From Amphiscolops sp. MND2022 (Eukaryota): a DNA stretch of 64,000 bases. The stretch is taken from the NCBI GenBank assembly GCA_964187785.1, contig OZ076409.1:71364001-71428000 (forward strand), read 5' to 3'. Of this stretch, positions 1 to 64,000 are shown in pieces. A program made the translations under genes and the position numbers. A model generated the notes under the pieces. That model was not told the origin of the DNA, ran no database searches, and saw only the letters and a list, made by a program, of their open reading frames with translations. How positions within the stretch are numbered: the first letter of the stretch is position 1; each line of letters begins with the position of its first letter.

Positions 1-810
1 TCCCGCAATTTTGAACTTTCTGGATGGCGAACCGTGAGTGTAAGAAGAATGGAGGGATTGCCGCAGAATTTTAGACACCATTCATCGCTGCGACGAACAC
101 AGTTCCCATTAAAACCTTTCCAAGCCTCAACAATACATAAATGTATCGGCGACGATGTCCCTCTGCTGGCAACACAGATAGCCACCACTGATCCCTTTGA
201 GCGGAAAATGTTTAAGTTATGGGAGAAGAACCAGCTGCTTGTTTTGGTGAGTCGTGTTAAAGAACTCAAAGAACTGACGTTTGTGGGAAGTAAATCCGCA
301 ACGTTGAAAACAATTAAAGACATTGCAACGTCCACCAGCCAGTGGGACTATTTTGTTCACGAATTCGTGGAAGCATTGTCGCAACAAGACTTGTCAAAAC
401 CCCTTGCAACGTTTCCTGTCTCCCAACATATTTACTCAATGTCCTGCCAATCCGTTCCACAAGACAATTGCGCTACAGTGTTCTGCCTGATGTCATTGAA
501 AGACGGAACTATTGCTGTCGCCGCTTGTACTAACATCAGAAAAACACTGCAACAGAAAAATTCATTCGATGTAACTGAAAACACTTTTACTGGCAACAAA
601 AAACCATGGGCTCTACTGTGTGCTGCCTTTCACCCAGCTGTGTCCGCCTTAGATGACTCTGTGCGAGCGTTGGAGTGCCATTGGAACAATAGTCTTCCAC
701 ATGACGAAAAACCCGATCCACCGAAAATTGTGCGTCTGTTGCAAGAGACCACATTATCATTCACTTGCTTCTATCAAACTATTAACTTTGTTTCATTTGT
801 AAACCCATGA
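1..810 (+). CDS. 5'-truncated ORF: C-terminus of a PIF1-family helicase plus a degenerate GIY-YIG domain, probable Helitron-like RepHel transposase
   Basis: Frame +1 has no stop from base 1 to TGA at 808-810. RRTQFPLKPFQASTIHKCIG and LWEKNQLLVLVSRVKELKELTFVG (nt ~91-288) resemble the PIF1 C-terminal motifs RxQFPLxLAxAxTIHKSQG and GQLYVALSR. VFCLMSLKDGTIAVAACTNIRKTLQQKN...KPWALL...RALECHW (nt ~472-693) follows the SLX1-type GIY-YIG pattern. The HUH Rep domain is not in the window. Confidence 0.85.
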   Translation, partial: SRNFELSGWRTVSVRRMEGLPQNFRHHSSLRRTQFPLKPFQASTIHKCIGDDVPLLATQIATTDPFERKMFKLWEKNQLLVLVSRVKELKELTFVGSKSATLKTIKDIATSTSQWDYFVHEFVEALSQQDLSKPLATFPVSQHIYSMSCQSVPQDNCATVFCLMSLKDGTIAVAACTNIRKTLQQKNSFDVTENTFTGNKKPWALLCAAFHPAVSALDDSVRALECHWNNSLPHDEKPDPPKIVRLLQETTLSFTCFYQTINFVSFVNP

Positions 811-876
811 ACTTTCTTGTTTCTCTATTTGATTTCCTTGCATGAGTTTGTTGCTGCACAAGTTAGTGCCCCAATG

Positions 877-889
877 AATAAAGAATAAA
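877..889 (+). promoter_or_regulatory. Possible tandem polyadenylation signals
   Basis: AATAAA at 877-882 and 884-889, about 70 nt after the stop codon. Weak evidence in AT-rich DNA. Confidence 0.35.
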
Positions 890-1251
890 AAAACTCTCAG
901 AAAAAATATGATGACAAAACAATGAAACGGCCGAGAGTTTTAAAAAAAAAACAGAAACTCATCATTATTAGACAAAAATCTGTTAACAGAAACTGTTCTT
1001 TTTTCTACACAAACAAAACGCATCGGATGAAACCGAATTAGCAAAACTGTCTTTCCTGCAAAAATTTTATCCCTTTTTAGATTGTTTTTGAACATCTGTC
1101 GAATTGCCACGAAGAATTCGGACACCTAGCTACGGTAAAATGCACTTCGGGACTGGTGTGAGGTTTGTTACTTGGCACTCGCGAGGATTAGAATGCCTGC
1201 AACTATCCTACGATCAAAAGGTTTCCACAATGTCCTCACTAGAGTCTGTTG

Positions 1252-1288
1252 AACACTGATTGGCTGCCCGCAGCAGCCAATCAGTGTT
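1252..1288. repeat. Perfect inverted repeat, 16-bp stem with 5-nt loop
   Basis: AACACTGATTGGCTGC-ccgca-GCAGCCAATCAGTGTT. Confidence 0.95.
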
Positions 1289-1312
1289 TTCTGTCTAGCA
1301 TTTTTCAAACTG

Positions 1313-3858
1313 ATACCATGAAGATATTTTCTGCTCTCGTCTTCTCATTGCACTATCGTGTTTTGTGTTATCTGAATCAAAAATTTCCAAATTGCCGTTG
1401 ATTTTCCATTGGTTTCAAATTTAGTCTTTGCTCTTTTGTTGGAGTGATTTCGTGGTGCAAGTTGGTCCTTAATTATTATGTGTGAATGATGACATCGCTG
1501 GTTGTCTGGCTCTACATAACACTCAAACTGTAGGGCACTAACAGCTGCCGGCTCACATGTCATCAAATACACAGTTTAATTTCGGACCAGTTTTTACACC
1601 AAAAGAACTCCATCAATTGACGCTAGGCTGTGACTCGATTCGACTCCCAGCATTGTGTCGTTTTCCATGTGATGTTTAGTTGTGTGTTACACTTTGTTCG
1701 GCTGTTGGTTTCTAGTTACAGCTATGCTCTTTTGTTGAAATGATTTCGTGGTGCAAATTGGTCCTAAATTATTATGTGTAAATGATGGCATTGCTGGTTG
1801 TCTGGCTCGACAGAAAACACAAACTGTTGGGCGCTAACAGTGGCCGGCTCACATGTCATCAAATACACAGTATAATTTCGGACCGGTTTCCACACCGGAA
1901 ACATTCTGACAATTGATGCTAGGCTGTCACTCTTGTCGACTCCGAAACTTGTGTTGTTTTGATAAGATCCGTCTTTGTGTGTTACACATTTGTTCGGCTG
2001 TTGGTTTCAAGTTACACCTATGCTCTTTTGTTGGATTGATTACGTGGTGCAAAGTGGTCCTAAATTATTATGTGTAAATGATGGCATTGCTGGTTGTCTG
2101 GCTCTACATAACACACCACATGTAGGTCACTAACAGCTGCTGGCTCACGTGTCATCAAGTACATAGAATAATTTCGGACCAGTTTCCACACCGAAAACAA
2201 TCTATCAACTGATGCTAGGCTGTCACTCCTGACAACTCCAAACTATATGTCATTTTCCATGAGACCCTTCGGAGTGTGTCCTTTTTGTTTGGTTGTTGGT
2301 TTTGGGTTTTGGCTAGGCTCTTTTGTTGCAAATATTCCGTGGTGAAAGTTGGTCCTAAATTATTATGTGTAAATGATGACATTGCCGGTTGTCTGGCTCG
2401 ACAGAAAACACAACCAGTTAGGCGCTAACAGTGACCGGCTCACATGTCATCAAATACACATTATAACTTCAGACCGGATTCCACACTGAATTAATTTACA
2501 TCAATTGTAACTCGGCCATCACTCTTTTTCAATGTTGCCAAACTACATGAGCAACCTTAAATTATACTAATTTATTGTATCTCAATACCATGAAGACATA
2601 TTCTGCTCTCGTCTTCTCATTGCACTATCGTGTTTTGTGTTATCCGAATCAAAAATTTCCAAATTGCCGTTAATTTTCCATTAGTTTCGAGTTTAGGCTA
2701 TGCTCTTTTGTTGGAGTGATTTCGTTGTGCAAGTTGGTCCTAAATTATTATGTGTAAATGATGACATCGCTGGTTGTCTGGCTCTACATAACACTCAAAC
2801 TGTAGGTCACTAACAGCTGCCAGCTCATGTGTCATCAAATACACAGTATACGTTCGGACCAGTTTCTACACCAAAAGAACTCTATCAATTGACGCTAGGT
2901 TGTCACTCGATTCGACTCCCAGCATTGTGTCGTTTTCCATGTACTATTTGGTTGTGTGTTACACTTTGTTCGGCTGTTGGTTTCTAGTTACAGCTATGCT
3001 CTTTTGTTGGAATGATTTCGTGGTGCAAACTGGTCCTAAATTATTATGTGTAAATGATGGCATTGCTGGTTGTCTGGCTCGACAGAAAACACAAACTGTT
3101 GGGCACTAACAGTGGCCAGCTCACATGTCATCAAATACACAGTATAGTTTCGGACCGGTTTCCACACCGAAAACATTCTGACAATTGATGCTAGGCTGTC
3201 ACTCTTGTCGACTCCGAAACTTGTGTTGTTTTGATAAGATCCGTCTTTGTGTGTTACACTTTTGTTCGGCTGTTGGTTTCGAGTTACAGCTATGCTCTTT
3301 TGTTGGATTGATTTCGAGGTGCAAATTGGTCTTAAATTATTATGTGTAAATGATGGCATTGCTGGTTGTCTGGCTCGACAGAAAACACAAACTGTTGGGC
3401 GCTAACAGTGGCCGGCTCACTTGTCATCAAGTACATAGAATAATTTCGGACCAGTTTCCACACCGAAAACAATCTATCAACTGATGCTAGGCTGTCACTC
3501 CTGACAACTCCAAACTATGTGTCATTTTCCATGAGACCCTTCGGCGTGTGTTTCTTTTTGTTTGGTTGTTGGTTTTGTGTTTTGGCTAGGCTCTTTTGAT
3601 GCAAATATTCCGTGGTGAAAGTTGGTCCTAAATTATTATGTGTAAATGATGACATTGCCGGTTGTCTGGCTCGACAGAAAACACAACCTGTTGGGCGCTA
3701 ACAGTGACCGGCTCACATGTCATCAAATACACATTATAACTTCAGACCGGATTCCACACCGAATTATATTTACATCAATCGTAACTCGGCCATCACTCTT
3801 TTTCAATGTTTCCAAACTACATGAGCAACCTTAAAATATACTAATTTATTGTATCTCA
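1313..3858. repeat. Higher-order tandem repeat: two ~1272-bp blocks, each with four ~296-bp monomers
   Basis: GGTCCTAAATTATTATGTG-like anchor at 1464, 1760, 2056, 2351, 2736, 3032, 3328 and 3624. Block start ATACCATGAAGA at 1313 and 2585. Confidence 0.92.
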
Positions 3859-4771
3859 GGACCTAGTATGGTATTTGCGTAGCTTCGATTTCATTTCTAA
3901 ATTCAAAAACTTGCTCCTAAGACACAAATACAAAATAATAGGGTGTTTTTGAGGCCTAAGTAACCTTGGGATTAAATTGATAATAACGAAGGTTGTCTGG
4001 CTCAGTGTTATGTATGAAAAGCCCAAAAACTAGCTCTGCTCCGTTTCGCCAATGTAGATGATCACTGAGCACTTACAGCTTCCTTATACGAATAACCTAA
4101 GACATAAGGTTATAAATTGCATCCGAAGTCCTTTTGCAAACCTGCGTTGAAATAGTGTAGTTCTAGTAACAACAGCTGATAGCGTCGCTCACACTGTGGT
4201 TTCGGATAACACGATGCAAGAAACCGATTGAGAAGAAAACAAAAGTCACAGGAGAAACACCAGTTCAAATTATGTCCTAATTGAGAATTTCTTTTTGAAT
4301 AAACAAATACATTTTTCCAGAAAAAAAATGAATTTGATTTCACAACAAAACAATCATTTAAAAATTAGGTGAATTTGAAATGATATTTTTTGCATTTTTT
4401 GCATGAAATTACATTGCTTTCTTCTTCGAATGAAATTCATATTAAATATGTTTTTGTTTCCTACCAAACTGGTGTTCCTCATGACGCTTTATCCACTTAA
4501 GAATACGATGCTTCAAGAAAATGGGAAATCGAAGAAAATGGGAAATCGAAGGTAAAAAGTCTCGGATCAACAAATAGCTGCGGCGGTTGTTACAGAGACC
4601 GCACTGTTTCCAGCGATGACAACAACTACTACAACTACTACGACGTTGACTGCAACAGGTTAGAATTAGGATGTTTCAGTATTTTGGGATGCTTGCTTTG
4701 GAGTTGGTATGCATGGGTTGTGTTGTGATTTGTTGTGTGGTTATGTAGGTGTGCGGGTGATTATGTATTGC

Positions 4772-4772
<1 letters not shown>

Positions 4773-4810
<38 letters not shown>

Positions 4811-4824
4811 GTGTGTGTGTGTGT
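4773..4824. repeat. (TG)n microsatellite
   Basis: About 17 uninterrupted TG units followed by an imperfect extension. Confidence 0.95.
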
Positions 4825-5389
4825 ATGTTGCATGTGTTTGTCTGATGCGGGAGTGTGGGTATGTGGCTTTATTTTCTTTTCTTTTTCTTATGAACTTTTC
4901 CCTATATTGTTTTCCAAAGATTTGACATTTCTATTACTGCATTTTAAATAAAATAATTTGGATCTTTCAAAGGTCTTTTGCAAAATGATTTCTTTTTACT
5001 TTGTTATTCGTTTTTTCTTGAAAAAGAATAATATACTTTCTTTGGAGATACTTCACGAATTTTCATGTCAACAATCGTAATAAGTGAAATCAACAGAAGT
5101 TCTTTATGTATGTCACTTTACATGTTTACAGATTTGGAAAAACAAGATTGTCAATCAAAACTAGTATCATCTATAACAGAAGGCGAGTTACATTTTTACA
5201 TGCGGCTCCAAAACCTCAAAATTCTATATTTCAGTTATCAATCTGAACATCGGTTGTTATTATAAGTTTATCTTTAAAGACGTTTGTTATACATAAAATA
5301 TTACGTAACATTTTCCAGAAGTTTGAAACATTCAATAGCTTTTCGAAACAATACATTTCCCTATCATACATCAACGCCATATACTAACT

Positions 5390-5477
5390 TCAACGCACAC
5401 CGTCTGTAGGCATGCCGAGGCATGCCTTTCGACGACATATGCCCAATACATTTAGCCCCGCAGTCTTTTCCTGCTAG
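5390..5477 (+). promoter_or_regulatory. Conserved 3' terminal module (first of 24 copies)
   Basis: Consensus CAACGCCCACCGTCYGT-RGGCATGCCGAGGCATGCCY-TTCGACGACGTATGCC, then a variable spacer and CTRG. In the copies measured, the 20-mer starts 62-74 bp before CTRG. Confidence 0.9.
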
Positions 5478-6744
5478 GTGGCCGGGAATTTTTTTTCTGC
5501 TCAATTCTTTGCCAACTGGGGGAGGGGCCCCTGGTGGCTGTTACCCAAAATACATACCTACTAAAATCGTCCGCTCCGGATACGATCTCGAAAACCAATC
5601 CATAACTTTTTCTGAAACTTTGCATGTGGGCCTAAAATGAGATTGTAAGAACAATGATATAGGCGTCATTTCTGAATTTTTGCAAAAAGTTGGTCAAAAA
5701 CGCAAAAAATGGGTCAAAATTGACCACTTTTTCAACTTTTTTATTTTTGAGAGCCCATATCTCGGAACGAGGTGGCCGTAGCGGCCCGCATAAGGACTCC
5801 GTTTTTGCTGGGCACTTGATGAGGAGTGCGTGGACAAATTTTCGTCCAAATCGAAGTAAAATTGACTGAGTAATGAGTGATTTTTTGACGACCTTTTTTG
5901 CGAACCCCATTGTATCTCTGCCATTTTCCGCCAAAATTTTCAAAAGTGGTTCTACAGGAGGCAACCCCTGCCCAATTTTCTGCAGAACAAAACCATTTGG
6001 CCCTAAATACGAGGTTTCAGCGTTCTAGCATTCCCCGGTGAAAAGTTATAGGACTTAGAAATTTGTCAGTGAAACGCAAAATTTGTAAATTCAACTTCCG
6101 GTGCCCAAAAGTCACAAAACTTTCACACAACTAGTATTGCAAGTGAATGCATGTGGAAAGTACTGAAATAGACGAGAAAAATGAGCTATAGAACGACTCT
6201 CTACCTTAACCTGAGGTTGACTTATGATGTTTTGAATGTGAGCATCCTATCTGATTTTAATGTCAAAAATGAGATTTTGTAAGTCATGTCTCATCAAAAA
6301 CTCATCGGAATACGTTCAATCATCTCTATAGCTGTTCAATTGCCGTAGCTTAGTACAGCAACGCCATTGAATGTCTTTGGACCCATTTTGAAAATTATCG
6401 ATACCGTCTTATTCGTCCGATATCACGAAACAGTTGAGTACATTCCATCTCCCTCTTTGGGGGGAGATGAGAATGTACTCGCTAAAGAGCTGGTACAATG
6501 GCCCATATTTGTTTTTAACTGACGCTTCTCATGATATTTCACACGTACACCTCTATTTGGTAACACATTTTCCTTTGCACCGTGTTTATATATGCCAAAC
6601 CACTTCTTTACCTTACTACTTCTACTCAAACATCACCAACGTCAACGCCACATACTCGCATCAACGCCCACCGTCCGTAGGCATGCCGAGGCATGCCTTT
6701 CGACGACGTATACCTAGTATACGCGTTAGCGCGGTAGCCGCTAG
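5478..6744 (+). mobile_element. Cassette 1, family A (1267 bp)
   Basis: GTGG start, CTAG end, type-1 hairpin at 6436-6480, 3' module at 6679. Confidence 0.85.
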
Positions 6745-9120
6745 GTGGTCGGGGTGTGTTTCCCAGCCGAGTTTGCCGCGCGGGGAGGGACCCGTTCAGC
6801 GGCCCAGGTCATTATTTTTTTACATTAAAAAAAACGATACCCCGGAAAGCGATTTCGAAACCCACCCGTAGGATCCCTCTGAATTTTTGCATACACCTCC
6901 GTATAACAGTTCTAAGAAAAAGTCAGCAAGGGCGTTTTCAGTTCTAAACGGGGAATGTTGACCAAAAAGCGCAATTTATGTCCAAAAAAATGCAATTTTT
7001 CGACTTTTTTATTTTTGACGGCCTACAGCTCTTTTCCAGATGCCCGCCCAAGTCATAAACCGGAGTAAACTTTTGTTGGGCACTTCGTGAAGAATCTGTA
7101 GGGTGATTTTCGTTTCAATCCTATTTCCTGACGTTGACTTATGGTTGGGTGAAAAAACGCAACATTTGTTACAAAAAGTGCTTTTGGTACTCAAGGGCCC
7201 ATAACTCGTGACATAATCAATTGAGCAAGTTCGTGTATAATTACAATTTTGTTGCCTATTTATAGGAGAACAAACAAGCAGTGACAAAATTTTCTGTGGG
7301 AAGACGTCAAAAAAAGATATCAGAGGTTTTATAATCAATAAAACAGTGTTTTTCGGTTATCGTGGAAAAAATGTAAAAGGGTGGCATTTTTCGGCTGTTT
7401 AAGGTAGCGGGTATTTTATTGCTGTTATTAACTCACCTCTACTATTCATTTACTTGGATGATTTTCAATTTTGATAAATTACATGATAAACTTCATTTTT
7501 TGCGTCACCAATATTGACACCCACGATTACAGTCAATTTTTTCGCGTTCACGTTTTTGAGTGGATATAACTTTTTTCCAGTGCGTTTTAGGGTCATCATC
7601 CAGGAGCACAAAATTGTTGGCCGTCTTAAGCAGAAAATATATGGTAAGTTTGGAGTCTTTTGAAACGTTTTTGAAATGTCCAGAGATGCGCAAATTTACA
7701 GTTTTTTTGCCCACAAAACACAATTTTACGAAACCCAACACTTTTTGCCAAAAAAGTCAAACTTTGTCCACACAACTTAGATTGCAAGTGAATGCATGCG
7801 GAGAGTACTTGAAATGATGGGAAACATGAGCTATATAACGCTCCTTTACGACAACGTGACGTGGACTTAGGATAATTTGAAAAAGTACGAAAAAAAAGAA
7901 CAACGGTTCCAAAACAATCAGTTTGTAGTAAATGGCCAATAACTCCATACACAACGCTCCGCGCAAGCTAGTGTCCAAGTACGTTTTTGTTACCCGTGAA
8001 CAGTGCAACATATAAGTAAAAGTAAAACTTTATGTAGAGAATCGTCGGAGAAAGAAATAACGGGATTTTTCATCACATTTAAGAGACAAAATTGAAAAAT
8101 TAGTCAATTCCTGGCATTTTACCTAACTTTTTTCGACAGTACACATACAGGAGGTAAAATTCGCCCAATATCATGCCTAACAAAACTATGTGATCCATTG
8201 GCCGCAATTTGAGCGTTCCACCTTTCCCCAGTCATAAATTATAGGACTTCGAAAACTTTCAAAATTTCCATTTTTCAACAAAATTTCAAATTCAGGCCCC
8301 CCAAAGGTAAGAAAGTTCCACACAACTAGGATTGCAAGTGGTTGCATGTGGAAAGTGCTCGAACCGACGAGAAAAATGGGCTTTAGAACGTCTCTCTATC
8401 GTAACCTGACGTTGACTTATGATGTTTTGAATGTGAGACTGCTACGTGCTCGAGAAGTGTAAGTGGAACATATGTCTCGTTGAAAACTCATCGGAATACA
8501 GTCAATGAACCCAATCACCCTAAATTGCAGTTTCCTAGTGCAACAACGTCTGTCAAGGACCTTTTTTGATAAGAGTCGAAATTATTATTAAATTCAGTTA
8601 GCAAGAAACACTTGAGTACATTCTCATCTCTCCCCATCGGGGGAGATGAGAATGTACTTGCTAAAACGGCTTCTTTGTTTTCATGCGATGGATTCTGTGC
8701 CTTGCCACACATATAACTTTGTTTTGTGTGACCTTGCATATATACTTTGACTTGTCATGATAAATTTCTTCTCGTAAATTTACGTAAATCCACAATGCAT
8801 CTACAATGCATCTTCAACGTCAAAGCCAAATAAAAATAGCTGGCCACCGTCCGTAGGCAGAGCAAGGCATGCTTTTTGACGACGTATGCCGAAACACAAA
8901 CGCGAACAAAACTGCTGAAAATCAGAAACAGTGGCCAACAATTTTGACTGTTTGACATATGGTAGGTTTTTATATGGAACTTAGACATCACTGATATTTC
9001 ACAACATTTCAGCTGACGCCCACCTACCACTATCAACGCGCACCGTCAGTGGGCATGCCGAGGCATGCCCTTCGACGACGTATGGCTAATACTTTCAGCG
9101 ACGCCCCCGCCTACCTCTAG
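6745..9120 (+). mobile_element. Cassette 2, family B (2376 bp)
   Basis: Two copies of the CACACAACT..ATTGCAAGTG block (~7767, ~8316), type-1 hairpin at ~8614-8658, a vestigial 3' module at 8844 and an intact one at 9051. Confidence 0.85.
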
Positions 9121-11662: not shown

Positions 11663-13051
11663 GTGGTTGGGGCGGACCCCAGAACGCACAAGGAGGCGCG
11701 GGGAGGGTCCTGCGCCGACGTAGAATAATTTCATATAATACTAGTATCCTACATGGGTGTTTTAGAGGCGATTTTGGAATCTAACCGTAGGATTTGGATA
11801 ATTTTTTGCATGCGGCCATAACTCAAAATTCTAAGAACTTTTTCCTACTGTCATTTTCCACGCAAATTGTTTTTTGTTGACTTATGGCCGAAAAACCGGA
11901 AATAACGTCCTTTTTAGACGTTATATCCGAAGTGTCGTCATAACTTTTTTCCAGGGCATGCTAGCGTTCTCGTTCACTTTTACACTTAGTTGCAGCATCT
12001 CAAAATACAACTGGTGGAAAATTTTGGTTGCATTCGGATCACCCCCCACCGAGATAGAAGGGTTCCCCCCTCCAGTTTTACCCCCCAAATTTGCAAAATA
12101 GCCAATTTTGAGCATGAAGCCGAGGATTTAGCGTACCCATACCCTCCTGATGTTTTGTTGTACGTATTGGGGTCAATCTGACGACATGTGTGGTTTTCAC
12201 CCCCAACCCCCCCTTGGACCGGAAATGACACTTTTTTGTGTTTTTTGGCAGAATTTAGCCTTTTTCATTATTAGGCAGTCGTTTTAGGGACTCCTAGCAG
12301 GATATCGAAATTGAAATACAACCTGATCACAACCCAGTGACAACATAGTGGCCACTTGGAGGTATCATCATGACCGGAAGTGGGGTCAACCCCCCTTTTT
12401 GTGACCGCTTTTTGACCTTGTGCACCAAAATGCCAACATCTTGAGGCCTAATGAGGCATTCAAATCTGTACCAAGATAAAATGTTAGACAACCGAAGTCC
12501 CGGAAGATCTTTAGCATATACCGGAAGTTACCCCCCATGACCGGAAGTTACCCAATGTGACCGGAAATGGTCCAAAAATTAATGTAAAGTTGAATTTTTC
12601 ACTATTTCAAGACCACTTAATTGAAACTTTTCAATCTATAAACTAGCGTACTGGCTTGTTTTGCTGAATTTATGGAAATTGATGAGCTCTATCGCTCCCG
12701 ATAGCCTTCTAAGTTGACCTTGCGTCAACTTTGTAGGCTATCGATAAAGAAAAATGAACAACAAAGTACATTGTTGCTCTCGTTTTTTTCCCGTTGTTTT
12801 TCCTCAAACATTCTTGAGACATATACATGGCCGTTAGTTGAAATCAATATTTAGCCCATGTTATAGCTGGAGCAGCGAAGCGTTACACAGACTAGTGTGG
12901 TTTTGAAATCACACTATTTAAATTAACAACTGACCGTCTTAGTCAACTCCACACATTCATACCAACGCCCACCGTCTGTGGGCATGCCGAGGCATGCCCT
13001 TCGACGACGTATGACGAATCCACTCCAACGACACCCGCAGTCCTCAGCTAG
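11663..13051 (+). mobile_element. Cassette 5, family C (1389 bp)
   Basis: Paralogue of cassette 8. Type-2 hairpin at 12699-12743. Confidence 0.85.
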
Positions 13052-17234: not shown

Positions 17235-19919
17235 GTGGTCGGGGCCCGATGCCCTTCAAAAAACCGTTGCGCGTCGACGGGAAGGGTCCTGTCCGCGCCC
17301 GTGGGAAAAGAACAATATATACGATGTCAAAAAGCCACTTTTTTCAACGATCTCGTAAACTAACCGTAGGATCCTGCTCAAATTTGGCATGTGGCTTGCA
17401 AATAGGCTGAAATGAAAAAGTGTAGGAGGTAATTTTTCTGTAGTATCATTTTGTGTTGACTTATGAGCTAAAAACTACCCGTTCGACATCTTTTTTTCAC
17501 TTTTTTCAAATTTTAGAGCTCATATCTCGTTTTCAGGTGCTCGGAGCGGTTCGCATGTGGACGTCAATATTGCTCAGCAGTGCTAGAGGAGTGCGTAGAC
17601 AAATTTTTGTCCAATTCGGATAAAAATGGACTGAGTAATAACCGATTTTTTGACGAATTTTTTCGAAAATTTTTGAAATCCCAGTCTATCTCTGCCGTTT
17701 TTTGCCCAGATTTTTTTCCAGACACTCTCCTAAAGGCCTCCCCTGGCCGGTTTACCTCCCAGAAAAACCATTTGGCCCTTTTGCCGCAGTTTCAGCGTTC
17801 CAGGATTCCCCGGGTAAAAGTAAAATGTCTTAGAATTTTTTCGAAAAATTTTCAAAAAATTTTTTTTTTCAACTTCAGGCCTCCCAAAGTCGAGGAACTT
17901 CCACACAACTAGTATTGCAAGTGAATGCATGTGGAAAGTTCTCGGATAGACGAGAAAAATGAGCTATTGTACGACCCTGTAGCTTAATCTGACGTTGACT
18001 TATGACATTTTTAGTGTGAGCTTGAATAGGGGTTGAAGTGTCAAATAAAATTAAGTGTCTTTTCAGAGCCTATTACATCCTCCCACGTTATCGTAGCGGT
18101 TCGCATGTGGACGTCAATATTGCTTAGCAGTCTTAGGGGAGTTCGTATACAAATTTTCGTCCAGATCGGATAAAAATTGACTGAGTAATAACCGATTTTT
18201 TGACGAATGTTTTCGAAAATTTTTGAAATCCCAGTCTATCTCTGCCGTTTTTTGCCCAGATTTTTTTCCAGACACTCTCCTAAAGGCCTCCCCTGGCCGG
18301 TTTACCTCCCAGAAAAACCATTTGGCCCTTTTGCCGCAGTTTCAGCGTTCCAGCACTCCCCAGTAAAAAGATAAAAGACTTAGAATATTTTCAAAAATTT
18401 TCAAATTTTTTTCTCTCAACTTCAGGCCTCCCAAAGTCAAGAAACGTCCACACAACTAGGATTGCAAGTGAATGCATGTGGAAAGTACTTGGATAGACGA
18501 GAAAAATGAGCTATAGAACGACTCTCTAGCTTAACCTGACGTTGACTTATGACATTTTTAGTGTGAGCTTGAATAGGGGTTGAAGTGTCAAATAAAATTA
18601 AGTGTCTTTTCAGAGCCTATTACTTCCTCCCACGTTATCGTAGCGACTCGCATGTGAGAATCAATATCGCTCAGCGGTTCAAGAGGAAGGCATAGACAAA
18701 GTCTCGTCCAAATCGGATCAAAATTGATTGAGTAAAAACCGATTTTTTGAGCAATTTTTTTCGGAAATTTTCGAAGTTTCAATATATCTCTGCCGTTTTT
18801 GCCCAGATTTTTTTCCAGACACTCTCCTAAAGGCCTCCCCTGGCCGGTTTACCTCCCAGAAAAACCATTTGGCTCTTTTGCCGCAGTTTCAGCGTTCCAG
18901 CATTCCCCGGTAAAAAGATAAATGACTTAGAATATTTTCAAAAATTTTCAAAATTTTTTTCTCTCAACTTCAGGCCTCCCAAAGTCAAGAAACGTCCACA
19001 CAACTAGGATTGCAAGTGAATGCATGTGGAAAGTACTTGGATAGACGAGAAAAATGAGCTATAGAACGACTCTCTAGCTTAACCTGACGTTGACTTATGA
19101 CATTTTTAGTGTGAGCTTGAACAGGGGTTGAAGTGTCAAACAAAATATTAAAATGGAAGCTAATTAAAATGGAAGCTAAGTCTAATCGGAATACGTTTAG
19201 TCAATCCCAGAGCTGTTCAATTGCCTTTGTTTAGTGCAACAAAACTATTTGAGGTCATTTGACTCATTTTTATTATGTTTTGAAACCGTTTTATCCATTC
19301 AATAGCATAAAACAGTTGAGTTCATTCCATCTCCCTTTCGGGGGAGATGAGAATGTACTCGCCAAAGACAAGGTGCAAGGGCCCCTAATTGTATTCTGCT
19401 ACTTTTTCTGTGCAACTGCCAACGGACAACATGACTTCGTGTGACTTTTTTCTTTGCAATGTGATTGGACATGTTGAACGTTCAGTCCTTACCTTTCCAC
19501 AGCATTTAATTTGATGGGTTGGGGCCCGTTGTCCTGTAAATGACATCTGCGCGTCTACAGCGAGAGTTCTGGCCTCGCTCTTAGCAGAAGACAATGTGAC
19601 GTAGTCAAATCGCCAATTTTTAACGATCGCGGCGACTGTACGAAGAATCGTACTTGAGTTTCTTTGGTTACTGTGAGATTTACGATATCAAAAAAATTAG
19701 GACATGCCATTTTTTTCAAACCAATTTTTGGTCATAAATTCTTCCAAAGAAACAGAACAACGCTAAATCTCATTTATTTACATCGAATGAACCATCCAGT
19801 AGTGTTTCAAAATCATTTTGCCAACACGAATCAGTTTCAAGGTGAGAAGCCAACATAAACTTTATAGTTTAAAGTTTTTCATATTAACACCTCGTGTACT
19901 CCACTGCTTTCACCGCTAG
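17235..19919 (+). mobile_element. Cassette 9, family E (2685 bp), A-related body triplicated, alternative 3' end
   Basis: Type-1 hairpin at 19318-19360. Ends CACCGCTAG without the GGCATGCC module. Confidence 0.8.
17546..19140. repeat. Internal ~548-bp tandem repeat, three copies
   Basis: GCGGTTCGCATGTG-like anchor at 17546, 18096 and 18643. Confidence 0.9.
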
Positions 19920-21902
19920 GTGGGCGGGGGTAATTCCCCTTCAAAAAATTCGGCCGGCGGGTTGGGTCCTGCCGGACGTCAAATAGTGTGAAACATCCAG
20001 TAGGAAACGGCGACATAAATCAGCGATTTTAAAATTTAACCGTTAGAATTCGGACTTGGAGTGCATGCGGCCCCAAAATGCCCATACGAATCGAAGTTCC
20101 TGCTGACGTTAAGCGATAAAAACACTTTATAAAAAGTTATGGCCCATTTTACGTTCACTTAGAGAAGTAAAATGAGGAAAATTTCAACAAAGTTGCTGAT
20201 AACTCAAAATACATTAATTTTTGGACTTTGACTGTGAAACAAGCTTGGAACCTTCATTTCGTGGCTGTGGCATTGCACTGAACACAAAAGCTGTAAAGTT
20301 TTCACATTTTTTGAAAATTCGACATTTTTGAAATTTTTTTCACTACTATCAGTACCCCATATGTCAAAAACACCTCAGAAAAAAATTTTTATTTGCTTTA
20401 AATTGGAAACCTTGGTATCCATGGTTTCTGTCGGAACCTACTCGCAGCCAAACACCCAACAGTTTGCATCCAATGTGAAAATAAAAATTTTTCGGGGTCA
20501 TAAGCGTTTCACAAGGATTTCTCAACTTAGTATTAATTTACAAAATGGTCATTTTGAACACAATATTTTCATCGAGGCTTGTCGGCTATAGCCTTAATGT
20601 TCTAGAACGGTCCCACTAGCAACGTAGGAACCATTTATAGTAATAGAAAGTTTTAAAAAAATATTTTCACCCGGTCTTCAGTCATTTTTCAGTCATTCGG
20701 AACTTAACTTAGAAAAATTTCGACCAAAATACCCAGTTTTTGTCAGGTCGAAAACTCAAATTCAGATTTTTAGGCAAAATTATTAACTCTGACGTAACCC
20801 ATGGGGCCCATGATACTCAAAACAACGATTGACACTGGTATCAATGGCTCCAATAACATATGAGTCGCGATAAGACGTTATTTTGAGCAATACGTCTCAA
20901 TTGAGGTAAAGATCTCGCAAGCCAGCGATCACAGTGAAATGTGATTTCATCAAAAATATACCCATTTTCGTCAATCATTATGTGCACAGAATGCGTAGGG
21001 TGCGTTTCAGCACTATAATGAGGTTTTTGAAGGCATCGAGTTGCTCAAGGGGTGGTATGAGACTATTTTGTCCCATATACTACTGTATTTTCCAAAATTT
21101 TTAGCCCAATATCTGGAAATACAAACTTGACAAAATACTTTCAACTACTTTATTCAAAGGTTACAATATAGATGAACACTGGGGTTGATCAGAAACTTTC
21201 ATCTCTTTCGTTTTCCGAAATATTTCCCTTCGCATGTGTTACATTCGTAGCAGAAAAAAAATCGAAACTGAAAAATACGCAATTTTGCTAATATAGAATC
21301 GCAATGATTGTGCCTAAAAACTCTTTAAACACTTCTAACGCGACCTTACGCACTCAAAATGATCGAAAATGCTATTCACAATGGTGACAAGTGCTCTTTC
21401 TACGATCCTGACTGGACAAGGTTTGCATATTTTTCAAGTACCTGTCATCTAAATCTTGTGATAGCCTTTTCAGTTGGCCTTGTGTCAACTTGGGAAGGCT
21501 ATCACATCAAAAAACCATCAACAAAAATAAATCTTGTTTATTGGATCTTACAGTCGATACTTTTTTTCGTGATTCTATACTACCGTTAGTATATTTCATC
21601 AGGTCACCTTACGATTGCATTCAGTCTTTGATAAAAACCTATGAACTCAAAGTCACATTTATATATTTTTTTGCCAAAAAAAAACATCAAAAATATCTAA
21701 AATATATGAAATACAGTCTTTAACATTTTTACATTTCAAGTTTCTGCCGTTATTAGGCCCATCAACTTCCTACAGCCACGCTCTCTGTCATTAGTACAAC
21801 GCCACATAGTGTTGCGACGTGCACAGTCTGTGGGCATGCCGAGGCATGCCCTTCGACGACGTATGCCGAATACCGCGGGCCTACGCCCGCGCTCCCGGCT
21901 AG
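19920..21902 (+). mobile_element. Cassette 10, family F (1983 bp)
   Basis: Colinear with cassettes 13, 14, 21, 23 and 27. Type-2 hairpin at 21458-21505. Confidence 0.87.
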
Positions 21903-30638: not shown

Positions 30639-33600
30639 GTGGGCGGGGGTAATTCCCCAACAAAAAAATCGGCCGGCGGGTCGGGTCCTGCCGGCCGTCC
30701 AAAATCAAAATTATACTAGTAGAAAACGGCCGGTCAAACGAGCTATTTTTTTATTTAACCGTTAGAATTTGGGTTTAGATTGCATGCGGCCATGAAATGG
30801 CCATACGAATCGAAGTTCCTGCTGACGTTTTGCGATTGAAACACTTTATAAAAAGTTATGGCCAATTTGTCAGTCACCTAGAAGGGCAAAATGAGGAAAA
30901 TTTTAACAAAGTCGCTGATAACTCAAAATGTGTTATTTTTTGGACTTTGACTGTGAAACAAGCTTGGAACCTTCATTTCGTGGCTGTGGCATTGCACTGA
31001 ACGCAAAAGATGTAAAGTTTTTACATTTTTTGAAAATTTGACATTTTTGAAATTTTTTTCACTACTATCAGTACCATATATGTCAAAAACACCTCAGAAA
31101 AAAAATTTTATTTGCTTTAACTTGGAAACCTTGGTATCCATGGTTTCTGTCGGAACCTACTCGCAACCAAACAACCAACAGTTTGCATCCAATGTGAAAA
31201 TAAAAAATTTTTCTGGGTCATAAGCGTTTCACAAGGATTTCTCAACTTAGTATTGATTTACAAAATGGTCATTTTGAACACAATATTTTCATCGAGGCTT
31301 GTCGGCTATAGCCTTAATGTTCTAGAACGGTCCCACTGGCAACGTAGGAACCATTTATAGTAATAGAAAGTTTAAAAAATATATTATCACCCTGTCTTCA
31401 GTCATTTTTCTGTCATTCGGAACTTAACTTAGAAAAATTTCGACCAAAATACCCATTTTTTGACAGATCGAAAATTCAAATTCAACTTTTTAAGCAAAAT
31501 TATTAACTCTGACGTAACCAGTGGGGCTCATGATACTCAAAAACACGATTGGGACTGGTACCAATGGCTCCAATATCATATGAGCCGCGATAAGACGTTA
31601 TTTTGAGCAATACGTCTCAATTGAGGGAAACATCTCGCAAGCCTGTGATCACAGTTAAAAGTGATTTCGTCAAAAATTTACTCTTTTTCGTCAATCACTA
31701 TGTACACAGAGTGCGTAGGGTGAGTTTCAGCACTATAATGCGGTTTTTGAAGGAATCGGTCTGCTCAAGGGGTGGTATGAGACATTTTTTTTGCATGTAG
31801 TACTATATTTCTCAAAACTTTTAGCCCATTATCTCGAAAAGCTCACTTCGCAAATTACTTTCAGTTACTCTATTCGAAGCTTAGAATATATATGAACACT
31901 GTGGTTGATCAGAAACTCTTGACTATTTTGTTTTTGGAAAAAAACTGCCTTGCATGTGTTACATTAGTGGCAGGAAAAATACCAGTAGCTCCAAAAATCA
32001 CAATTTTGGACGGACAGACCTGCAATGATGCAAAGCAAAAACGTTTCAACAACTTCTGGCGCCACTTTTTTTACCCAAGAGGTTCGAAATTACTATTAAC
32101 AATGCTGACATTCGCTATAAATAAGATCGAGGTCAATTTATTAACACTTAGGTTATACATTTATATCTGAGAAACCATTCTTTGTCAGGTCGCAATTTTA
32201 AATTTAGTTTGGGAAGCAATACTTTTCACTCTGAAGCAAACCGTTGGGCCCAAATTACTCAAAAACTACAAAAAGACTGTCACCATATGCCCTAATAGCA
32301 TATGAGATTCGACCGTTCGTTTTTAACACAAAAACTCTCATCCGAAGTAAACATGTTGAAAGCCTTGAATCACCGTGAGAAATGATTTCATCAAAAAATA
32401 TTCCTTTTTCGTCAATCTTTATCTACACAGAACACGTTGTGTCATTTTCAGCCGTGAAATGAGCTTCTACCGTAATATGGGTTGCTCAAGGTGTTGTATA
32501 AGTCAAAAACTTCCTCTTTTCTACTATCTTCTTCAAATATTTCAACCCTTTGTCACAAGAAGTTAATATTCAAAATCTCTTTGAAATGTTTCTTTAGGTT
32601 GGGGTGAAGTGTTAGAACAATAATTATGATCGAAGAATGATAGTATTGGTGTTTGGACCATGTCCGGATGAACAAATTGCAAAATCATGAAAAATTTCTT
32701 ACCATTTTTGGTCATTTTGTCAGTACTAAAAATGTTAGCTGAAAAAGAATTTTTTTGATGGCACCATTGGATTCCTCTCAAAAAGTTAGCTATATGAACT
32801 GTGTAATAACCCCGTATCTTTTCAATTTAAATAATTTTAAAAAGCAAACTTTTTTGACTAAAATCCTAAAAATCATACCATTTCCTAAAAAATTTCAAAT
32901 GCCCCCCATTTGACGTATAAGAATAGCACAGAAAACTATCACATACCGATCGACTCTACTTCCATTGTAAATTACCAGAATTTTGTTTAGAACAATTTTT
33001 GACGGATGCAAAAAAAATTTAAACCCTCCAAAAAAGGGCCAAAATTACACGAAAAAATTGACCTTAAAATTTTAAAATGTCGAAAAATCATCAAAACCAC
33101 AGCTTCTTGGGGTTCTATCAACTCCACGTGGTCCACAGAGTATGTTAAAACAAGTTTTACCCGTATTTGAGCAATATGTGAAAAAGCCGACTTTTTTGGG
33201 AATGAAAAACATACCATTTCCTAAAAAATTTCAAACGCACCCCATTTGACGTATAAGAATAGCACAGAAAACTATCACATACCGATCGACTCTACTTCCA
33301 TTGTAGGTTACCAGAATCTTGTTTAGAACAATTGTTGACGGATGCAAAAAAAATTAAACCCTCCAAAAATGGGCCAAAATTACACGAAAAAATTGACCTT
33401 AAATTTTTAAAATGTCAAAAAATCATCAAAACCACAGCTTCTTGGGGTTCTATCAACTCCACGTGGTCCACAGAGTATGCTAAAACAGGTTTTACCTGTT
33501 TCTGAGCTATATGTGAAAAAACCGACATTTTGGGGAAGAAAAACATACCATTTCCTAAAAAATTTCAAATGCACGCCATTTGCCGTATGAGAATAGCACA

Positions 33601-35399
33601 GAAAACTATCACATACCGATCAACTCTACTTCTATTGTAGATTATCAGATTCTTGTTTAGAACAAATTTTTATGGATATAAAAAATTTTTAAACCCTCCA
33701 AAAATGAGCCAAAATAACACGAAAAAATGGACCCTAAATTTTTAAAATGTCAAAAAATTATCCAAACCACAGCTTCTTGGGGTTCTATCAGCTCCACGTG
33801 GTCCACAGAGTATGCTAAAACAGGTTTTGCCCGTTTTTGAGCAGTATATGAAAAAGCCGACATTTTTGGGGAAGAAAAACATACCATTTCCTAAATAATT
33901 TCAAATGCAGGCAATTTGCCGTATGAGAGTAGCACAGAAAACTATCACACACCGATCAACTCTACTTCTTTTGTAGATTATCAGAATTATGTTTAGAGTA
34001 AAGTTTTATGGATATGAAAAATTTTTATACCCTCCAAAAATGGGCCAAAATGACACGAAAAAATTGACCTCAAATTTTTAAAATGTCAAAAAATTATCCA
34101 AACCACAGCGTCTTGGCGTTCTATCAACTCCAAATGACCTTCAGAGTATACCAAACCAGGTATTGCCAATCTTTTGAGCAATATTTAAAAACACCGACAA
34201 TTTGGCAAGAACACCATAATATGTTCCATATAAGAAGTGAATCATTCCACATATATACCCGGTCTAATATTTTCAAATTAGCGATAACATTTATACATGA
34301 TGGTTTTTGAAAGTGAGCTTCATAAGAGGTTGAGATGTAATAATACGTAAATGGACCCTAAGTTTCATTGAAATCTCAATTGAATACGTCCAATCAACTT
34401 CAATCCTAACTATTATATATCAAAAAACACTTGAGTACATTCCATCTCCCCATCGGGGGAGATGAGAATGTACTTTTCAAAAGCCAAAAACTTCGAATTT
34501 TAAATCTTTTGTAACATTGTATGTAACTGTTGAAACGATGAACGAATAAAAATGCTTCTAGTACCTTCATCAATTTTTGCTTCAGCTCCTATTTCTGCAG
34601 AACAAAACCAAAAGACACACTTACAGCAGTTAAGTTCGATTGTATAACTCAGTGAATAAAGGTATGACTGAGGAAGTTCACAAGTTGTTTCAAAAGTTTC
34701 CGGCCTTCCAAAATCATGAAACGTCCACACAACCAAGATAGCAAGTGAAAGAATGCTGAATGCACCTTATTAGATGAGATAAATAATGTGTGGAACTTGC
34801 CATTATCTCAAGATGACGTTGATTTATGATCTTTTCAGGATAGTTCGATATGTGACCACAATAGTGGAAAACTTATTACTATTTGAAGAACACCGTGGAA
34901 AGCGTTCAGAAAGGACAGTATATTTGTTTCGAGCATGCATGCGTGTGTTCCTTTGGTGACGTTAGCTTAGTGTACATGACGGAGGTATTCGAGAGATTAT
35001 GATAGAGTTTACTCACAAGTCTTTGTTTTTTTAAACTTTCTATGCCGTTGAGTACATTCGTAAGGTACATCCATCCCCTTCTCTGGGAATGTACGTTTGC
35101 CAAATGACTGTCATCCAAAATTCGTAATCCGGACGAGTTTAACTACATAAACATGTGATGAGCGTTTTCAATTCACAACCGAATAACATTTTTTTCTCGA
35201 AAATGATGATGGTTTTGATTTTGATGTCTTCTACTTTTATCATCATGCAAACGACCTTACCATGTCTCTCTTCTGTCGTCATTTGTACAACGCCACATAG
35301 CGTTCCGACGCCCACCGTCTGTGGGCATGCCGAGGCATGCCCTTCGACGACGTATGCCAAATGAGCCATACCCGCACTCTGGAGTGCGGTAGCAGCTAG
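30639..35399 (+). mobile_element. Cassette 15, family I (4761 bp), F-type head with a different 3' body
   Basis: F-like for about 1.1 kb. Type-1 hairpin at 34433-34474. Paralogue of cassette 22. Confidence 0.85.
32874..34210. repeat. Internal ~335-bp tandem repeat, four copies
   Basis: CATACCATTTCCTAAA at 32874, 33210, 33544 and 33880. Confidence 0.9.
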
Positions 35400-37374: not shown

Positions 37375-38444
37375 GTGGTCAAGGGGGATGCCCATCAGAA
37401 AATATTGCGAGGCCGGGGAGGGTCCCGAGAGCCGAGCACATTCTATCAATTCCTACCTTCAGGATTGCGAAGTATTTTAACCGATCTCGAAATTCACCCG
37501 TAGGATTTGTCTGAAACTTTGCATGTGGCTTTATGACAAAAATTTAAGAACTTTTTTCTGCTGACGTTTTTCCAGGAAAATTCATTTTGTAGGGTTTTTT
37601 TGCGTTTTTTTGGTTTTTTTCATCTTTTTTCATCTTTGATTAATCAATGACCGAATCAAAGGCCATTTTCACCATGAAGGAAAGCCCGTAGCGGCAAAGT
37701 GCACTTTTATGAAAATCATCAACGGTCAACGGTCTTTCGAACGGTCCGAAAAAATTTCCCCCCGGGGGAAACCAAAGTGCCGAAAAGTGCCAAAATTATT
37801 TTTTTGACTGAATCACTTTGATCAAATTGATGATTTGAGCAGCCGGAACGGTCCGCACGGTCTCGGACAATAAGGTCAAAAATTGTCAGCATCCAATGGG
37901 GGTTCCAAAAAAGTAATTTGTTCACCTGTAGGAGACATTTGAAAAAAGTTGATTTTTTGGAGTTTTGGCATTATGACTGATCGGATGACAAATCATTGCA
38001 TCACGTTGAGTTGCATTTGATGCAGCACACGAAGCAGCTGCAGCGAACTTGAAACTGCTTAGGGGGTTGGGGTTTACTATCTGTAACAAGCAAAATATCC
38101 CTTGGGCAAAAGGTATGCCAAAAAGTGCCTCAAAGTGTTAATTAAGTAGTTGCAAATCGGCTAGCAAAATTCATTGTCACCGGTGTTCCGTGAGTTGCGC
38201 AGCATCTCGCGGGAACAACGGTGCTTGTTTCGAACGCAAAACCCAACATACCTCTTTGGTGACGTGACGGAGGTCACCATTGGCCTTTTTCGGCAGTGTG
38301 ATGATATTTTTATTGTTGAGTTGTGAACAACATACACAAAAGATTTAGCGTGGGATATTTGTTTGTGTCATACTTCAGTAACAAACTTTCAACCGTTTTG
38401 TTTAGGCCTCTACCTAGCAGTGCTCTAAATCGCTCCATCGCTAG
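37375..38444 (+). mobile_element. Cassette 17, family J (1070 bp), alternative 3' end
   Basis: Ends GTGCTCTAAATCGCTCCATCGCTAG. Type-3 hairpin at 38184-38217. Confidence 0.85.
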
Positions 38445-39514
38445 GTGGTCAAGGGGGATGCCCATCAGAAAATATTGCGAGGCCGGGGAGGGTCCCGAGA
38501 GCCGAGCACATTCTATCAATTCCTACCTTCAGGATTGCGAAGTATTTTAACCGATCTCGAAATTCACCCGTAGGATTTGTCTGAAACTTTGCATGTGGCT
38601 TCATCTCAAAAATTTAAGAATTTTTTTCTGCTGACGTTTTTCCAGGAAAATTCATTTTGTAGGGTTTTTTTGCGTTTTTTTGGTTTTTTTCATCTTTTTT
38701 CATCTTTGATTAATCAATGACCGAATCAAAGGCCATTTTCACCATGAAGGAAAGCCCGTAGCGGCAAAGTGCACTTTTATGAAAATCATCAACGGTCAAC
38801 GGTCTTTCGAACGGTCCGAAAAAATTTCCCCCCGGGGGAAACCAAAGTGCCGAAAAGTGTTAAAATTATTTTTTTGACTGAATCACTTTGATCAAATTGA
38901 TGATTTGAGCAGCCGGAACGGTCCGCACGGTCTCGGACAATAAGGTCAAAAATTGTCAGCATCCAATGGGGGTTCCAAAAATGTAATTCGTTCACCTGTA
39001 GGAGACATCAGAAAAAAGTTGATTTTTTGGGGTATATGTCATTATGAGTGATTGGATGAGAAATAATTGTATCACTTTCAGTTGGATATGATGCAGCACA
39101 GGAAGCAGCTGCAGCAAACTTGAAACTGATTAAGGGGCTGGGGTTTACCCTCTGTATCGAGCAAAATAGCCCTAGGGCATAAGTTGTGCCAAAAAATGCC
39201 TCAAAGTGATGATTTGGTTATTGCAAATCGATCAGCAAAATTTATTGTCACCGGTGTTCCGAGAGTTGCGCAGCATCTCGCAGGAACAACGGTGCTTGCT
39301 TAGAAAGCAAAAAACCACAAAATCCCTTGAGTTAAGTTGACGGGAGTCACCATAGACATTCACTCGTCAGGGTGATGATATTCATCGTTCAATCCCAGAA
39401 TAACTTACAAAAAATTGCTAGCCTCAATATTTCTTTTTCATACTCCATTAGCAAAGGTTGCGCTGTTAAGTTTAGGCCTTTTACTAGCAGTGCTCTAAAT
39501 CGCTCCATCGCTAG
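38445..39514 (+). mobile_element. Cassette 18, family J (1070 bp)
   Basis: Paralogue of cassette 17. Type-3 hairpin at 39255-39288. Confidence 0.85.
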
Positions 39515-63467: not shown

Positions 63468-64000
63468 GTGGGCGGGGGTAATTCCCCAACAAAAAAATCG
63501 GCCGGCGGGTCGGGTCCTGCCGGCCGTCCAAAATCAAAATCCTCCTAGTAGAAAACGGCATGTCAAACGAGCTATTTTTTTATTTAACCGTTAGAATTTG
63601 GGTTTAGATTGCATGCGGCCATGAAATGGCCATACGAATGGAAGTTCCTGCTGACGTTTTGCGATTGAAACACTTTATAAAAAGTTATGGCCAATTTGTC
63701 ATTCACCTAGAAGGGCAAAATGAGGAAAATTTTAACAAAGTCACTGATAACTCAAAATGTAATAATTTTTGGACTTTGACAGTGAAACAAGCTTGGAACT
63801 GTCATTTCGTGGCTGTGGCATTGCACTGAACACAAAAGATGTAAAGTTTTCACATTTTTTGAAAATTCGACATTTTTGAATTTTTTTTCACTACTATCAG
63901 TACACTATATGTCAAAAACGCCTCTGAAAAAAATTATTATTTGCTTAAAATTAGAAACCTTGGTATCCATGGTTTCCGTCAGTACCTACTCGCTGCCAAA
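63468..64000 (+). mobile_element. Cassette 28 (partial), F- or I-type head
   Basis: Same head as cassettes 13, 15 and 22. Cut off by the window edge. Confidence 0.8.

Follow-up and report, generated by a model that had tools for sequence, protein, structure and literature searches.

Helitrons are known as loosely targeted elements that insert between A and T or between T and T, and their tandem arrays have been ascribed to rolling-circle replication. The defining features of HLE1 and HLE2 are taken here from the account in PMC11417382, in which the HLE2 family HelenSM92 is described as having captured a GIY-YIG domain. For Helraiser, the stem of the hairpin is reported to be exchangeable, whereas the loop is not (PMC4778049), and the element's own end-to-start joint is reported to be cut precisely in vitro (PMC5876387). 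Tandem Helitron arrays as such have been described already (PMC12001565, PMC5876387). Within the open-access literature, searched by title and start of abstract and exclusive of Repbase and subscription papers, we found neither multi-family self-stacking Helitron arrays nor a p53 site in a Helitron end, and the literature searched gave no termini or target for the branch in which RepHel is combined with GIY-YIG.

The locus described here is a 64-kb stretch of DNA, referred to as the window, in which a near-invariant 20-mer resembling a p53-family response element recurs 24 times. We conclude that this 20-mer is probably the core of the right-end recognition and termination signal of a Helitron-like lineage in which elements use each other's joints as insertion sites, and that its likeness to a p53 site is incidental. 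Taken by itself, the proposal that the lineage inserts into its own end-to-start joints, giving multi-family arrays, is one towards which we lean. From their sequences, the elements appear to belong to the Helitron-like superfamily, yet to fit neither HLE1, with its TC start and A-to-T target, nor HLE2, with its inverted repeats and T-to-T target.

The transposase gene and the array

The window opens within the transposase gene of an autonomous Helitron-like element, of which it contains the 3' end (1-810, + strand), an open reading frame that is open at the 5' edge and encodes a PIF1 tail and an SLX1-like GIY-YIG domain. Over 269 aa, its product shares 97.4% identity with the end of P0167, a protein of 2,351 aa in which Pfam recognises PIF1 and Helitron_like_N, and it is 94.8% identical to P0168. 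Relatives number 460 at E ≤0.001 among 50%-identity representatives, the named ones coming from Styela clava (about 30% identical) and Perkinsus olseni. Pfam finds PIF1 in all 20 aligned relatives, Helitron_like_N in 19, GIY-YIG in 6 and OTU in 3, and neither AP-endonuclease nor DUF6570 is among the 18 Pfam families of these 20 proteins. HUH and YxxKY motifs are kept in relatives such as P0001 and P0153, and it is by way of its relatives that the gene, of which the window holds the last 269 aa alone, appears to be the HUH Rep (Y2)-PIF1 fusion typical of Helitron-like elements. A structure model of the window piece (mean pLDDT 67) matches HIGLE/Slx1 with Foldseek E values of 6.6e-4 to 9.1e-4, and no p53-like DNA-binding domain was found in the transposase by Pfam or PDB profile. 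In this sub-lineage the catalytic GIY-YIG motifs of the SLX1-like domain (469-700) are degenerate, without the customary tyrosines and arginine that more distant relatives have kept, and the domain may be a non-cutting DNA-binding module. Residues 1-764 of P0153 form a cysteine-rich N-terminal part, with a weak Atlas lead (0.85) to USP/UCH proteases. Relatives from five different 90% clusters lie on contigs 1,297,008 long, and relatives from four clusters on contigs 607,828 long; if equal size means the same contig, this hints that autonomous families cluster too (P0001-P0260). A tyrosine-recombinase or integron reading of the locus was rejected, the open reading frame searched, one of five of at least 120 aa, having recognised relatives and being of RepHel type.

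The rest of this first unit, u1, is non-coding (811-5477, + strand) and comprises two 296-bp tandem arrays, a TG run and then the conserved right-end block and CTAG. No extra match to the 5'-end profile lies within 1-5477; there is thus no further unit start between the open reading frame and the 20-mer at 5408, and the block that ends the non-coding units appears to end the autonomous unit too. Non-autonomous copies and the autonomous element accordingly have terminal sequence in common at the right end. The match between u1 and the 23 other units that carry the block is confined to about 5368-5470, the left end of u1 lying beyond the window.

Downstream of u1, 27 complete elements of 1.07-4.89 kb follow head to tail without spacers on the + strand (5478-63467), and the start of a further unit (63468-64000, + strand) is cut off by the window edge, so that the window is made up of one 5'-cut unit, 27 complete units and one 3'-cut unit. 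Clustering of 5' and 3' parts at 75% identity gave 14 family labels, with 13 (B-N) among the complete elements, corresponding to about 13 families. The units abut in one orientation and at one precise joint, CT(A/G)G followed directly by GTG(G/C), of which the first of 28 lies at 5474-5481 on the + strand. CT(A/G)GGTG occurs 28 times on the + strand, where about 3.7 occurrences are expected, and 7 times on the - strand. A recognisable unit start, with the motif GGG-nn-GGG-n-CC, comes after each of the 28 joints on the + strand, and similarity between units begins and ends there; the ends were located by the CTRG pattern, and the unit boundaries given by similarity coincide with them. The 3' ends are CTAG at 25 joints and CTGG at 3, all of CTRR type, and the starts are GTG(G/C) in 28 of 28, none beginning with TC. 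The A or G of the joint tracks the upstream family and its fourth base after the break, G or C, the downstream family, and the break therefore falls inside the invariant GGTG; we place it between CTRG and GTG by analogy with Helitron ends. All 28 joints are element-to-element and run from G to G, with neither A-to-T nor T-to-T insertion at any of them, although dispersed copies in host DNA could differ in this respect.

Different families meet at 22 of the 28 joints, for which reason a pure rolling-circle concatemer was rejected as the main cause of the array. Same-family neighbours are nevertheless enriched relative to shuffled orders (6 of 28, compared with 2.1; P 0.01), and neighbouring copies of family K, and likewise of family N, are about 99% alike at their 5' ends; local duplication therefore contributes. 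Units u15, u22 and u24 are 98-99% alike over their first 500 nt, compared with only 86% for the adjacent u14 and u15, and the most similar copies of family G are non-neighbours. No empty site or de novo insertion of an array unit was seen, which counts against stacking. Terminal inverted repeats are likewise lacking in the 27 units, in which the longest match between a unit's own ends is 5-8 nt, compared with the roughly 12-16 nt expected for HLE2, and tblastn with 24 relatives matched 1-807 alone, with no transposase remnants in the array (5478-63467).

Several further features recur within the elements. Both copies of family J (30639-35399 and 47696-52456) are mosaics, in which a G-like 5' part of about 1.3-1.5 kb is followed by a body of another kind that contains a 336-bp tandem array. 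Two further palindromes, each about 45 nt in length, recur across dissimilar families. One, at 6433-6481 in the first instance, is found in families B, C, F, J and M at 280-970 nt from the right end and also at 555-607 of a metagenomic copy, L001, described below; the other, at 12700-12743, is found in families D, E, G, H, I and L, 290-1,030 nt before the right end, and the two were not seen together in any family. A left-end segment (about 5585-5630), 105-165 nt into most units, is present in nearly all families, including those without the 20-mer.

The conserved right-end block

The sequence RGGCATGCCGAGGCATGCCY has 24 exact matches in the 64-kb window, every one on the + strand, and none in 100 dinucleotide shuffles, even with two mismatches allowed. 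The first copy is 5408-5427, and the others start at 6679, 9051, 10322, 11594, 12980, 14385, 15776, 17163, 21832, 23800, 26592, 28584, 30567, 35323, 37298, 45639, 47624, 52379, 54372, 55679, 58343, 61418 and 63396. The number and near-invariance of these copies bear out an earlier note on this DNA, as does their presence in 11 of the 14 family labels, among families with dissimilar bodies. Each consists of R, a palindromic octamer, GA, the octamer again and Y, and variation is confined to bases 1 and 20. These are A..T in 6 of 24 copies (5408, 6679, 23800, 26592, 58343 and 61418), G..T in one (15776) and G..C in 17, exactly as the earlier note had listed them; A..C is never found. When set against the p53 consensus, RRRCWWGYYYRRRCWWGYYY, all 24 copies agree at 19 of 20 positions, as two RRRCWWGYYY half-sites with an intact C/G core, CATG in both cores and a spacer of zero, and the sole mismatch, at position 10, is fixed in all 24 and in L001. 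No other 20-mer in the window comes within one mismatch of this consensus. The degree of match was thus correctly reported, and the name of p53-family response element, which the earlier note had put in its title, stands as a description of sequence and in that sense only.

The 20-mer is the centre of a larger conserved block of 37 nt, delimited by per-column counts and alignment, of which the first of 24 intact copies lies at 5400-5436 on the + strand. The next 9 nt and 6 of the 8 preceding nt are likewise invariant in all 24 copies; identity then drops sharply at both block edges and reappears at the joint, the distance from 20-mer to CTRG being 42-54 nt in every case. Element bodies in the eight multi-copy families have accumulated at least 1.1 changes per site, a rate at which about 20 changes would be expected in the 18-nt core and about 10 in the 9-nt flank. 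None is observed in either, and the block must therefore be constrained or homogenised. Transitions that would be neutral for p53 at the 9 inner R/Y positions are also absent, with 4.5 expected (P ~0.01), whereas a test of CpG decay at positions 9-10 gave a weak result (P ~0.13).

A DNA fold with an 8-bp stem and a 4-nt loop (positions 9-12) is predicted for the 20-mer, with the fixed p53 mismatch inside the loop, and three intact copies have fold z values of -2.1 to -2.8. Seven of the eight stem pairs never vary. The remaining pair, 1:20, is always paired among 16 distinct rows (9 G-C, 6 A-T and 1 G-T), a level reached in none of 500 shuffles; counted by family and state there are 5 A..T, 8 G..C and 1 G..T (Fisher P 0.003), with double changes within families B and H. 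Allele exchange could mimic this covariation, which involves one pair and few events: A..T is linked to C at position -3 (5 of 6 A..T copies, compared with 3 of 18 others), and tails are swapped between families. The CGTC/GACG extension of the stem that the earlier note had proposed does pair in the fold, but compensatory changes are absent from it, and 3 of the 16 distinct rows have a broken outer pair there.

At the left end, the motif GGG-nn-GGG-n-CC (first copy 5519-5530, + strand) lies in a hairpin 38-57 nt from the start in 28 of 28 units. There the stem differs between families, and 4 of 7 predicted pairs have double changes among 14 rows. Compared with these compensated 5' stems, the invariance of seven of eight pairs in the 20-mer implies that something probably reads its sequence, and a hairpin alone is not enough to explain it. 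Since the Helraiser stem can be swapped and the 5' stems of these units differ, the invariant stem and flanks suggest sequence read-out, which on this comparison probably extends over about 37 nt.

Four of the 28 ends, in families F, K and L, lack the 20-mer, and no perfect p53 half-site lies near them. Unit u10 (17235-19919, + strand, family F) has the same joints and an AT-rich hairpin of 8 bp (19857-19877), unrelated to the 20-mer, that ends 38 nt before CTAG. Units u18 and u19 (family K) and u20 (family L), together spanning 37375-44404 on the + strand, have the same joints with no clear hairpin there, and families K and L have other 3' motifs in common. This is as expected if subterminal motifs are lineage-specific. 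A decayed twenty-fifth copy of the block (8844-8892, + strand, with its 20-mer at 8855-8874) lies inside u3, and the intact copy at 9051 follows 196 nt later. Compared with the copy at 23800, the decayed one has changes at 5 of the 20 positions of the core and 2 of the 27 of the flanks, no CTRG-GTG joint follows it, and it folds no better than shuffles (z -0.51). It is probably a bypassed former end, and three of the five core changes are adjacent and may represent one event. A loosely joint-like sequence at 8925-8935, about 54 nt past this copy, is possibly a relic of a former end. The decay of the one non-terminal copy, together with the four ends that have the same joint and no 20-mer, favours a terminal role for the block. 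A second, family-specific type of hairpin, exemplified at 21874-21891 (+ strand), lies 6-12 nt before CTRG, the canonical Helitron position, at 13 of the 28 ends, compared with 24 that have the 20-mer at 42-54 nt and 3 with no clear hairpin.

Related sequences were also found outside the window. A search of metagenome contigs for the flank pattern, with the central 20 letters left free, gave a single match, L001, and the central letters proved to be the same 20-mer. L001 has a new tail that is joined to a D/H-like start by CGAG followed by GTGC (874-884), and the CT of CTRG is therefore not absolute. In run X4, one contig likewise carries a new tail, which meets the start of a family-G unit at the same joint, and joints also form the beginning of contigs in X2 and X3. 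Record 20 of run X4 spans the block with 3 differing letters in 76 and was left out of the count of 20-mer copies. In viral contigs the 18-nt core had no match, and no relative of P0153 was confirmed. Among genome contigs there were 10 single free-centre flank matches, all of them in bacteria; these had 0-3 of the 8 stem pairs, departed from the p53 consensus at 8-14 positions and were treated as chance.

What may read the block

How could such a block act? It stands at a fixed distance before the CT(A/G)G ends of the RepHel-gene unit and of 23 non-coding units, and this context, together with the decay of the non-terminal copy, supports the transposase recognition palindrome that was one of the earlier note's two suggestions. 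By analogy with Helraiser, the transposase would start at the left end and displace the + strand. It would then recognise the loop and the stem sequence of the block, in the form of either a hairpin of single-stranded DNA or a tandem palindrome in the duplex, and this recognition would cause it to stop and to cut at the CTRG about 50 nt further on, giving a circle. The enzyme would also target existing joints between right end and left end, so that new copies stack into an array; joint cutting of the Helraiser type, if the joint is used as a target, would give arrays such as these. Non-coding families would keep the block because they borrow the autonomous enzyme, and families F, K and L may be served by a sister enzyme or need no more than the left end. 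Read-out of the stem sequence by this transposase is our assumption, since a Helraiser-like hairpin would leave the invariant stem unexplained. Against a right-end signal stand the four ends of 28 without the block and its distance from CTRG, which is greater than that of the family-specific hairpins; the latter could be the real terminators at 13 of the 28 ends.

Could the 20-mer instead be a working site for a host protein of the p53/p63/p73 type, either alone or on top of a hairpin role? Judged from the sequence, we consider this unlikely, and equally so the consequence that, after damage or in the germline, it would activate the left end lying about 50 nt further on, in the array that of the next unit and in the circle the element's own, or that the host would repress the array. 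The 19 of 20 agreement, with zero spacer and CATG in both cores, is striking in that a random hairpin of 8 bp and 4 nt fits within one mismatch in 2.7 of 10,000 cases (about 1 in 3,700), but this locus comes from a scan of about 250,000 stretches of DNA, so that rare look-alikes get picked, and other palindromes found across families of these elements have no p53 likeness. The p53retriever scheme scores an AT core positively and long spacers negatively, and variation is confined to external positions, 1 and 20, at which p53 tolerates change; the fixed mismatch, however, falls where the half-sites meet, and the penalty for mismatches at this interface is reported to be larger (PMC4470028), and G/C at positions 3, 8, 13 and 18 places the 20-mer in the lower-affinity class for human p53 (PMC7817693). 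The stem of the 20-mer is fixed as that of the 5' hairpin is not, which would suit a protein site, but the flanks beyond the site are equally invariant, its position is tied to the element terminus, and four ends do without it and without a perfect half-site nearby. Conservation by the p53 rule would allow free exchange of R for R and Y for Y and would stop at the site edges, and neither was found. The R/Y rule, which the earlier note had described as fitting the variation, predicts neither the pairing of bases 1 and 20, permitting A..C, which is never seen, nor the invariant flanks and the fixed mismatch, although a hairpin constraint added to p53 binding could still account for the absent exchange. 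One named transposase relative comes from an animal, Styela clava, and the host is quite possibly an animal too, but the clade also includes a member from Perkinsus olseni, a protist that is not known to have p53.

The 20-mer may well bind p53 in vitro. SOS switches on the mobilisation of integrons and prophages, and by analogy one may imagine a self-stacking RepHel-GIY-YIG system under p53 control, in which the right end of most units would hold a p53-family site, some 50 nt before the following unit starts, and damage or germline p63 would set mobilisation going. We hold this to be very unlikely, and no less so that the element's own circle, too, would in such a system place a p53-type site about 50 nt upstream of its start; p53 control is the weak half of that combined reading.

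The uniformity of the block might alternatively owe nothing to a reader, if recombination or gene conversion exchanges the 3' ends of array units and the pairing of bases 1 and 20 is maintained by mismatch correction within the palindrome. The similar tails of families B and E, the different tails that a single family can carry, the union in family J of a G-type 5' part with another 3' part, and the link between A..T and the base at -3 all speak for such exchange. Swapping of ends does not, however, account for the sharp loss of identity at both block edges and its return at the joint, for the escape of the non-terminal copy at 8855, or for the same block amid unrelated surroundings in the autonomous unit and L001, and we regard it as quite unlikely. 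Still less probable, in our judgement, is a block bound by some other host factor or acting in RNA, as a chromatin, centromere or chromosome-end signal or a small-RNA precursor, with the host keeping the array. One-way Helitron arrays are described as capping Paramecium chromosomes (PMC13085455) and Helitrons as occurring in Meloidogyne centromeres (PMC13404089), but the window has no Rfam match and no telomeric repeat array among its 14 tandem-repeat rows.

The right-end signal thus remains our preferred explanation, and the more solid novelty lies in the array itself rather than in the p53 likeness. The window supplies both ends and the fixed joint of the RepHel-GIY-YIG branch, which makes this branch testable in an assay of the Helraiser type. 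Stacking of different families at one precise joint, if true, would be another way of avoiding host genes, and such a lineage would offer a starting point towards a eukaryotic HUH integrase that is directed by sequence. Programs that insist on a TC start or on inverted repeats would probably overlook elements of this kind. Were the 20-mer a working p53 site, Helitron mobilisation would be tied to the damage response.

Comparison with known systems

Among known systems, p53 response elements are carried by LTR and LINE elements also. The 20-mer resembles them as a 20-bp tandem of palindromic half-sites (PMC7817693, PMC4470028), but natural sites are described as varying most in the RRR and YYY triplets (PMC7817693), whereas here triplets and flanks are fixed and the position is terminus-tied. 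The likeness to Helraiser and HLE1 is broader, comprising an HUH-Y2 Rep with PIF1, a CTRR 3' end, a subterminal palindrome at most ends, fixed orientation and head-to-tail joints (PMC4778049, PMC5876387). The bypass of a damaged hairpin to create a new end, as described for Helraiser, also resembles what is seen at the 8855 copy. In contrast with HLE1, however, the units start with GTG rather than TC and the joint runs from G to G rather than from A to T; the conserved hairpin is sequence-invariant and 42-54 nt from CTRG; the protein, of about 2,350 aa, has an SLX1-like tail; and the arrays mix many families. The transposase profile matched Helraiser in the helicase alone, with an E value of 3.8e-6, compared with 3.9e-18 for the best other Pif1 structure. 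With HLE2 the elements have in common an extra nuclease domain joined to RepHel, hairpins near both ends and, in 3 of 20 relatives, OTU; they differ from it in having no consistent terminal inverted repeats (5-8 nt), no T-to-T insertion and, in 20 of 20 relatives, no AP-endonuclease or DUF6570.

Replitrons, as described in PMC10288648, are HUH transposons of eukaryotes as well; they too insert in a set orientation and have short terminal motifs, which make the precise boundary hard to place, but they are of Y1 type, without a helicase and with direct terminal repeats, whereas the enzyme here is a RepHel of Y2 type. The third-clade Helitrons of Paramecium are likewise one-way, with a proposed target specificity, internal satellites, many non-autonomous copies and alternative right ends (PMC13085455). 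They are described as ending in CCAA with telomeric repeats between them, unlike the direct abutment of CTRG and GTG seen here, and the term GIY-YIG is absent from the same paper. Likened by description rather than by a tree, these Paramecium Helitrons are the closest precedent for the one-way, target-specific clusters of this locus.
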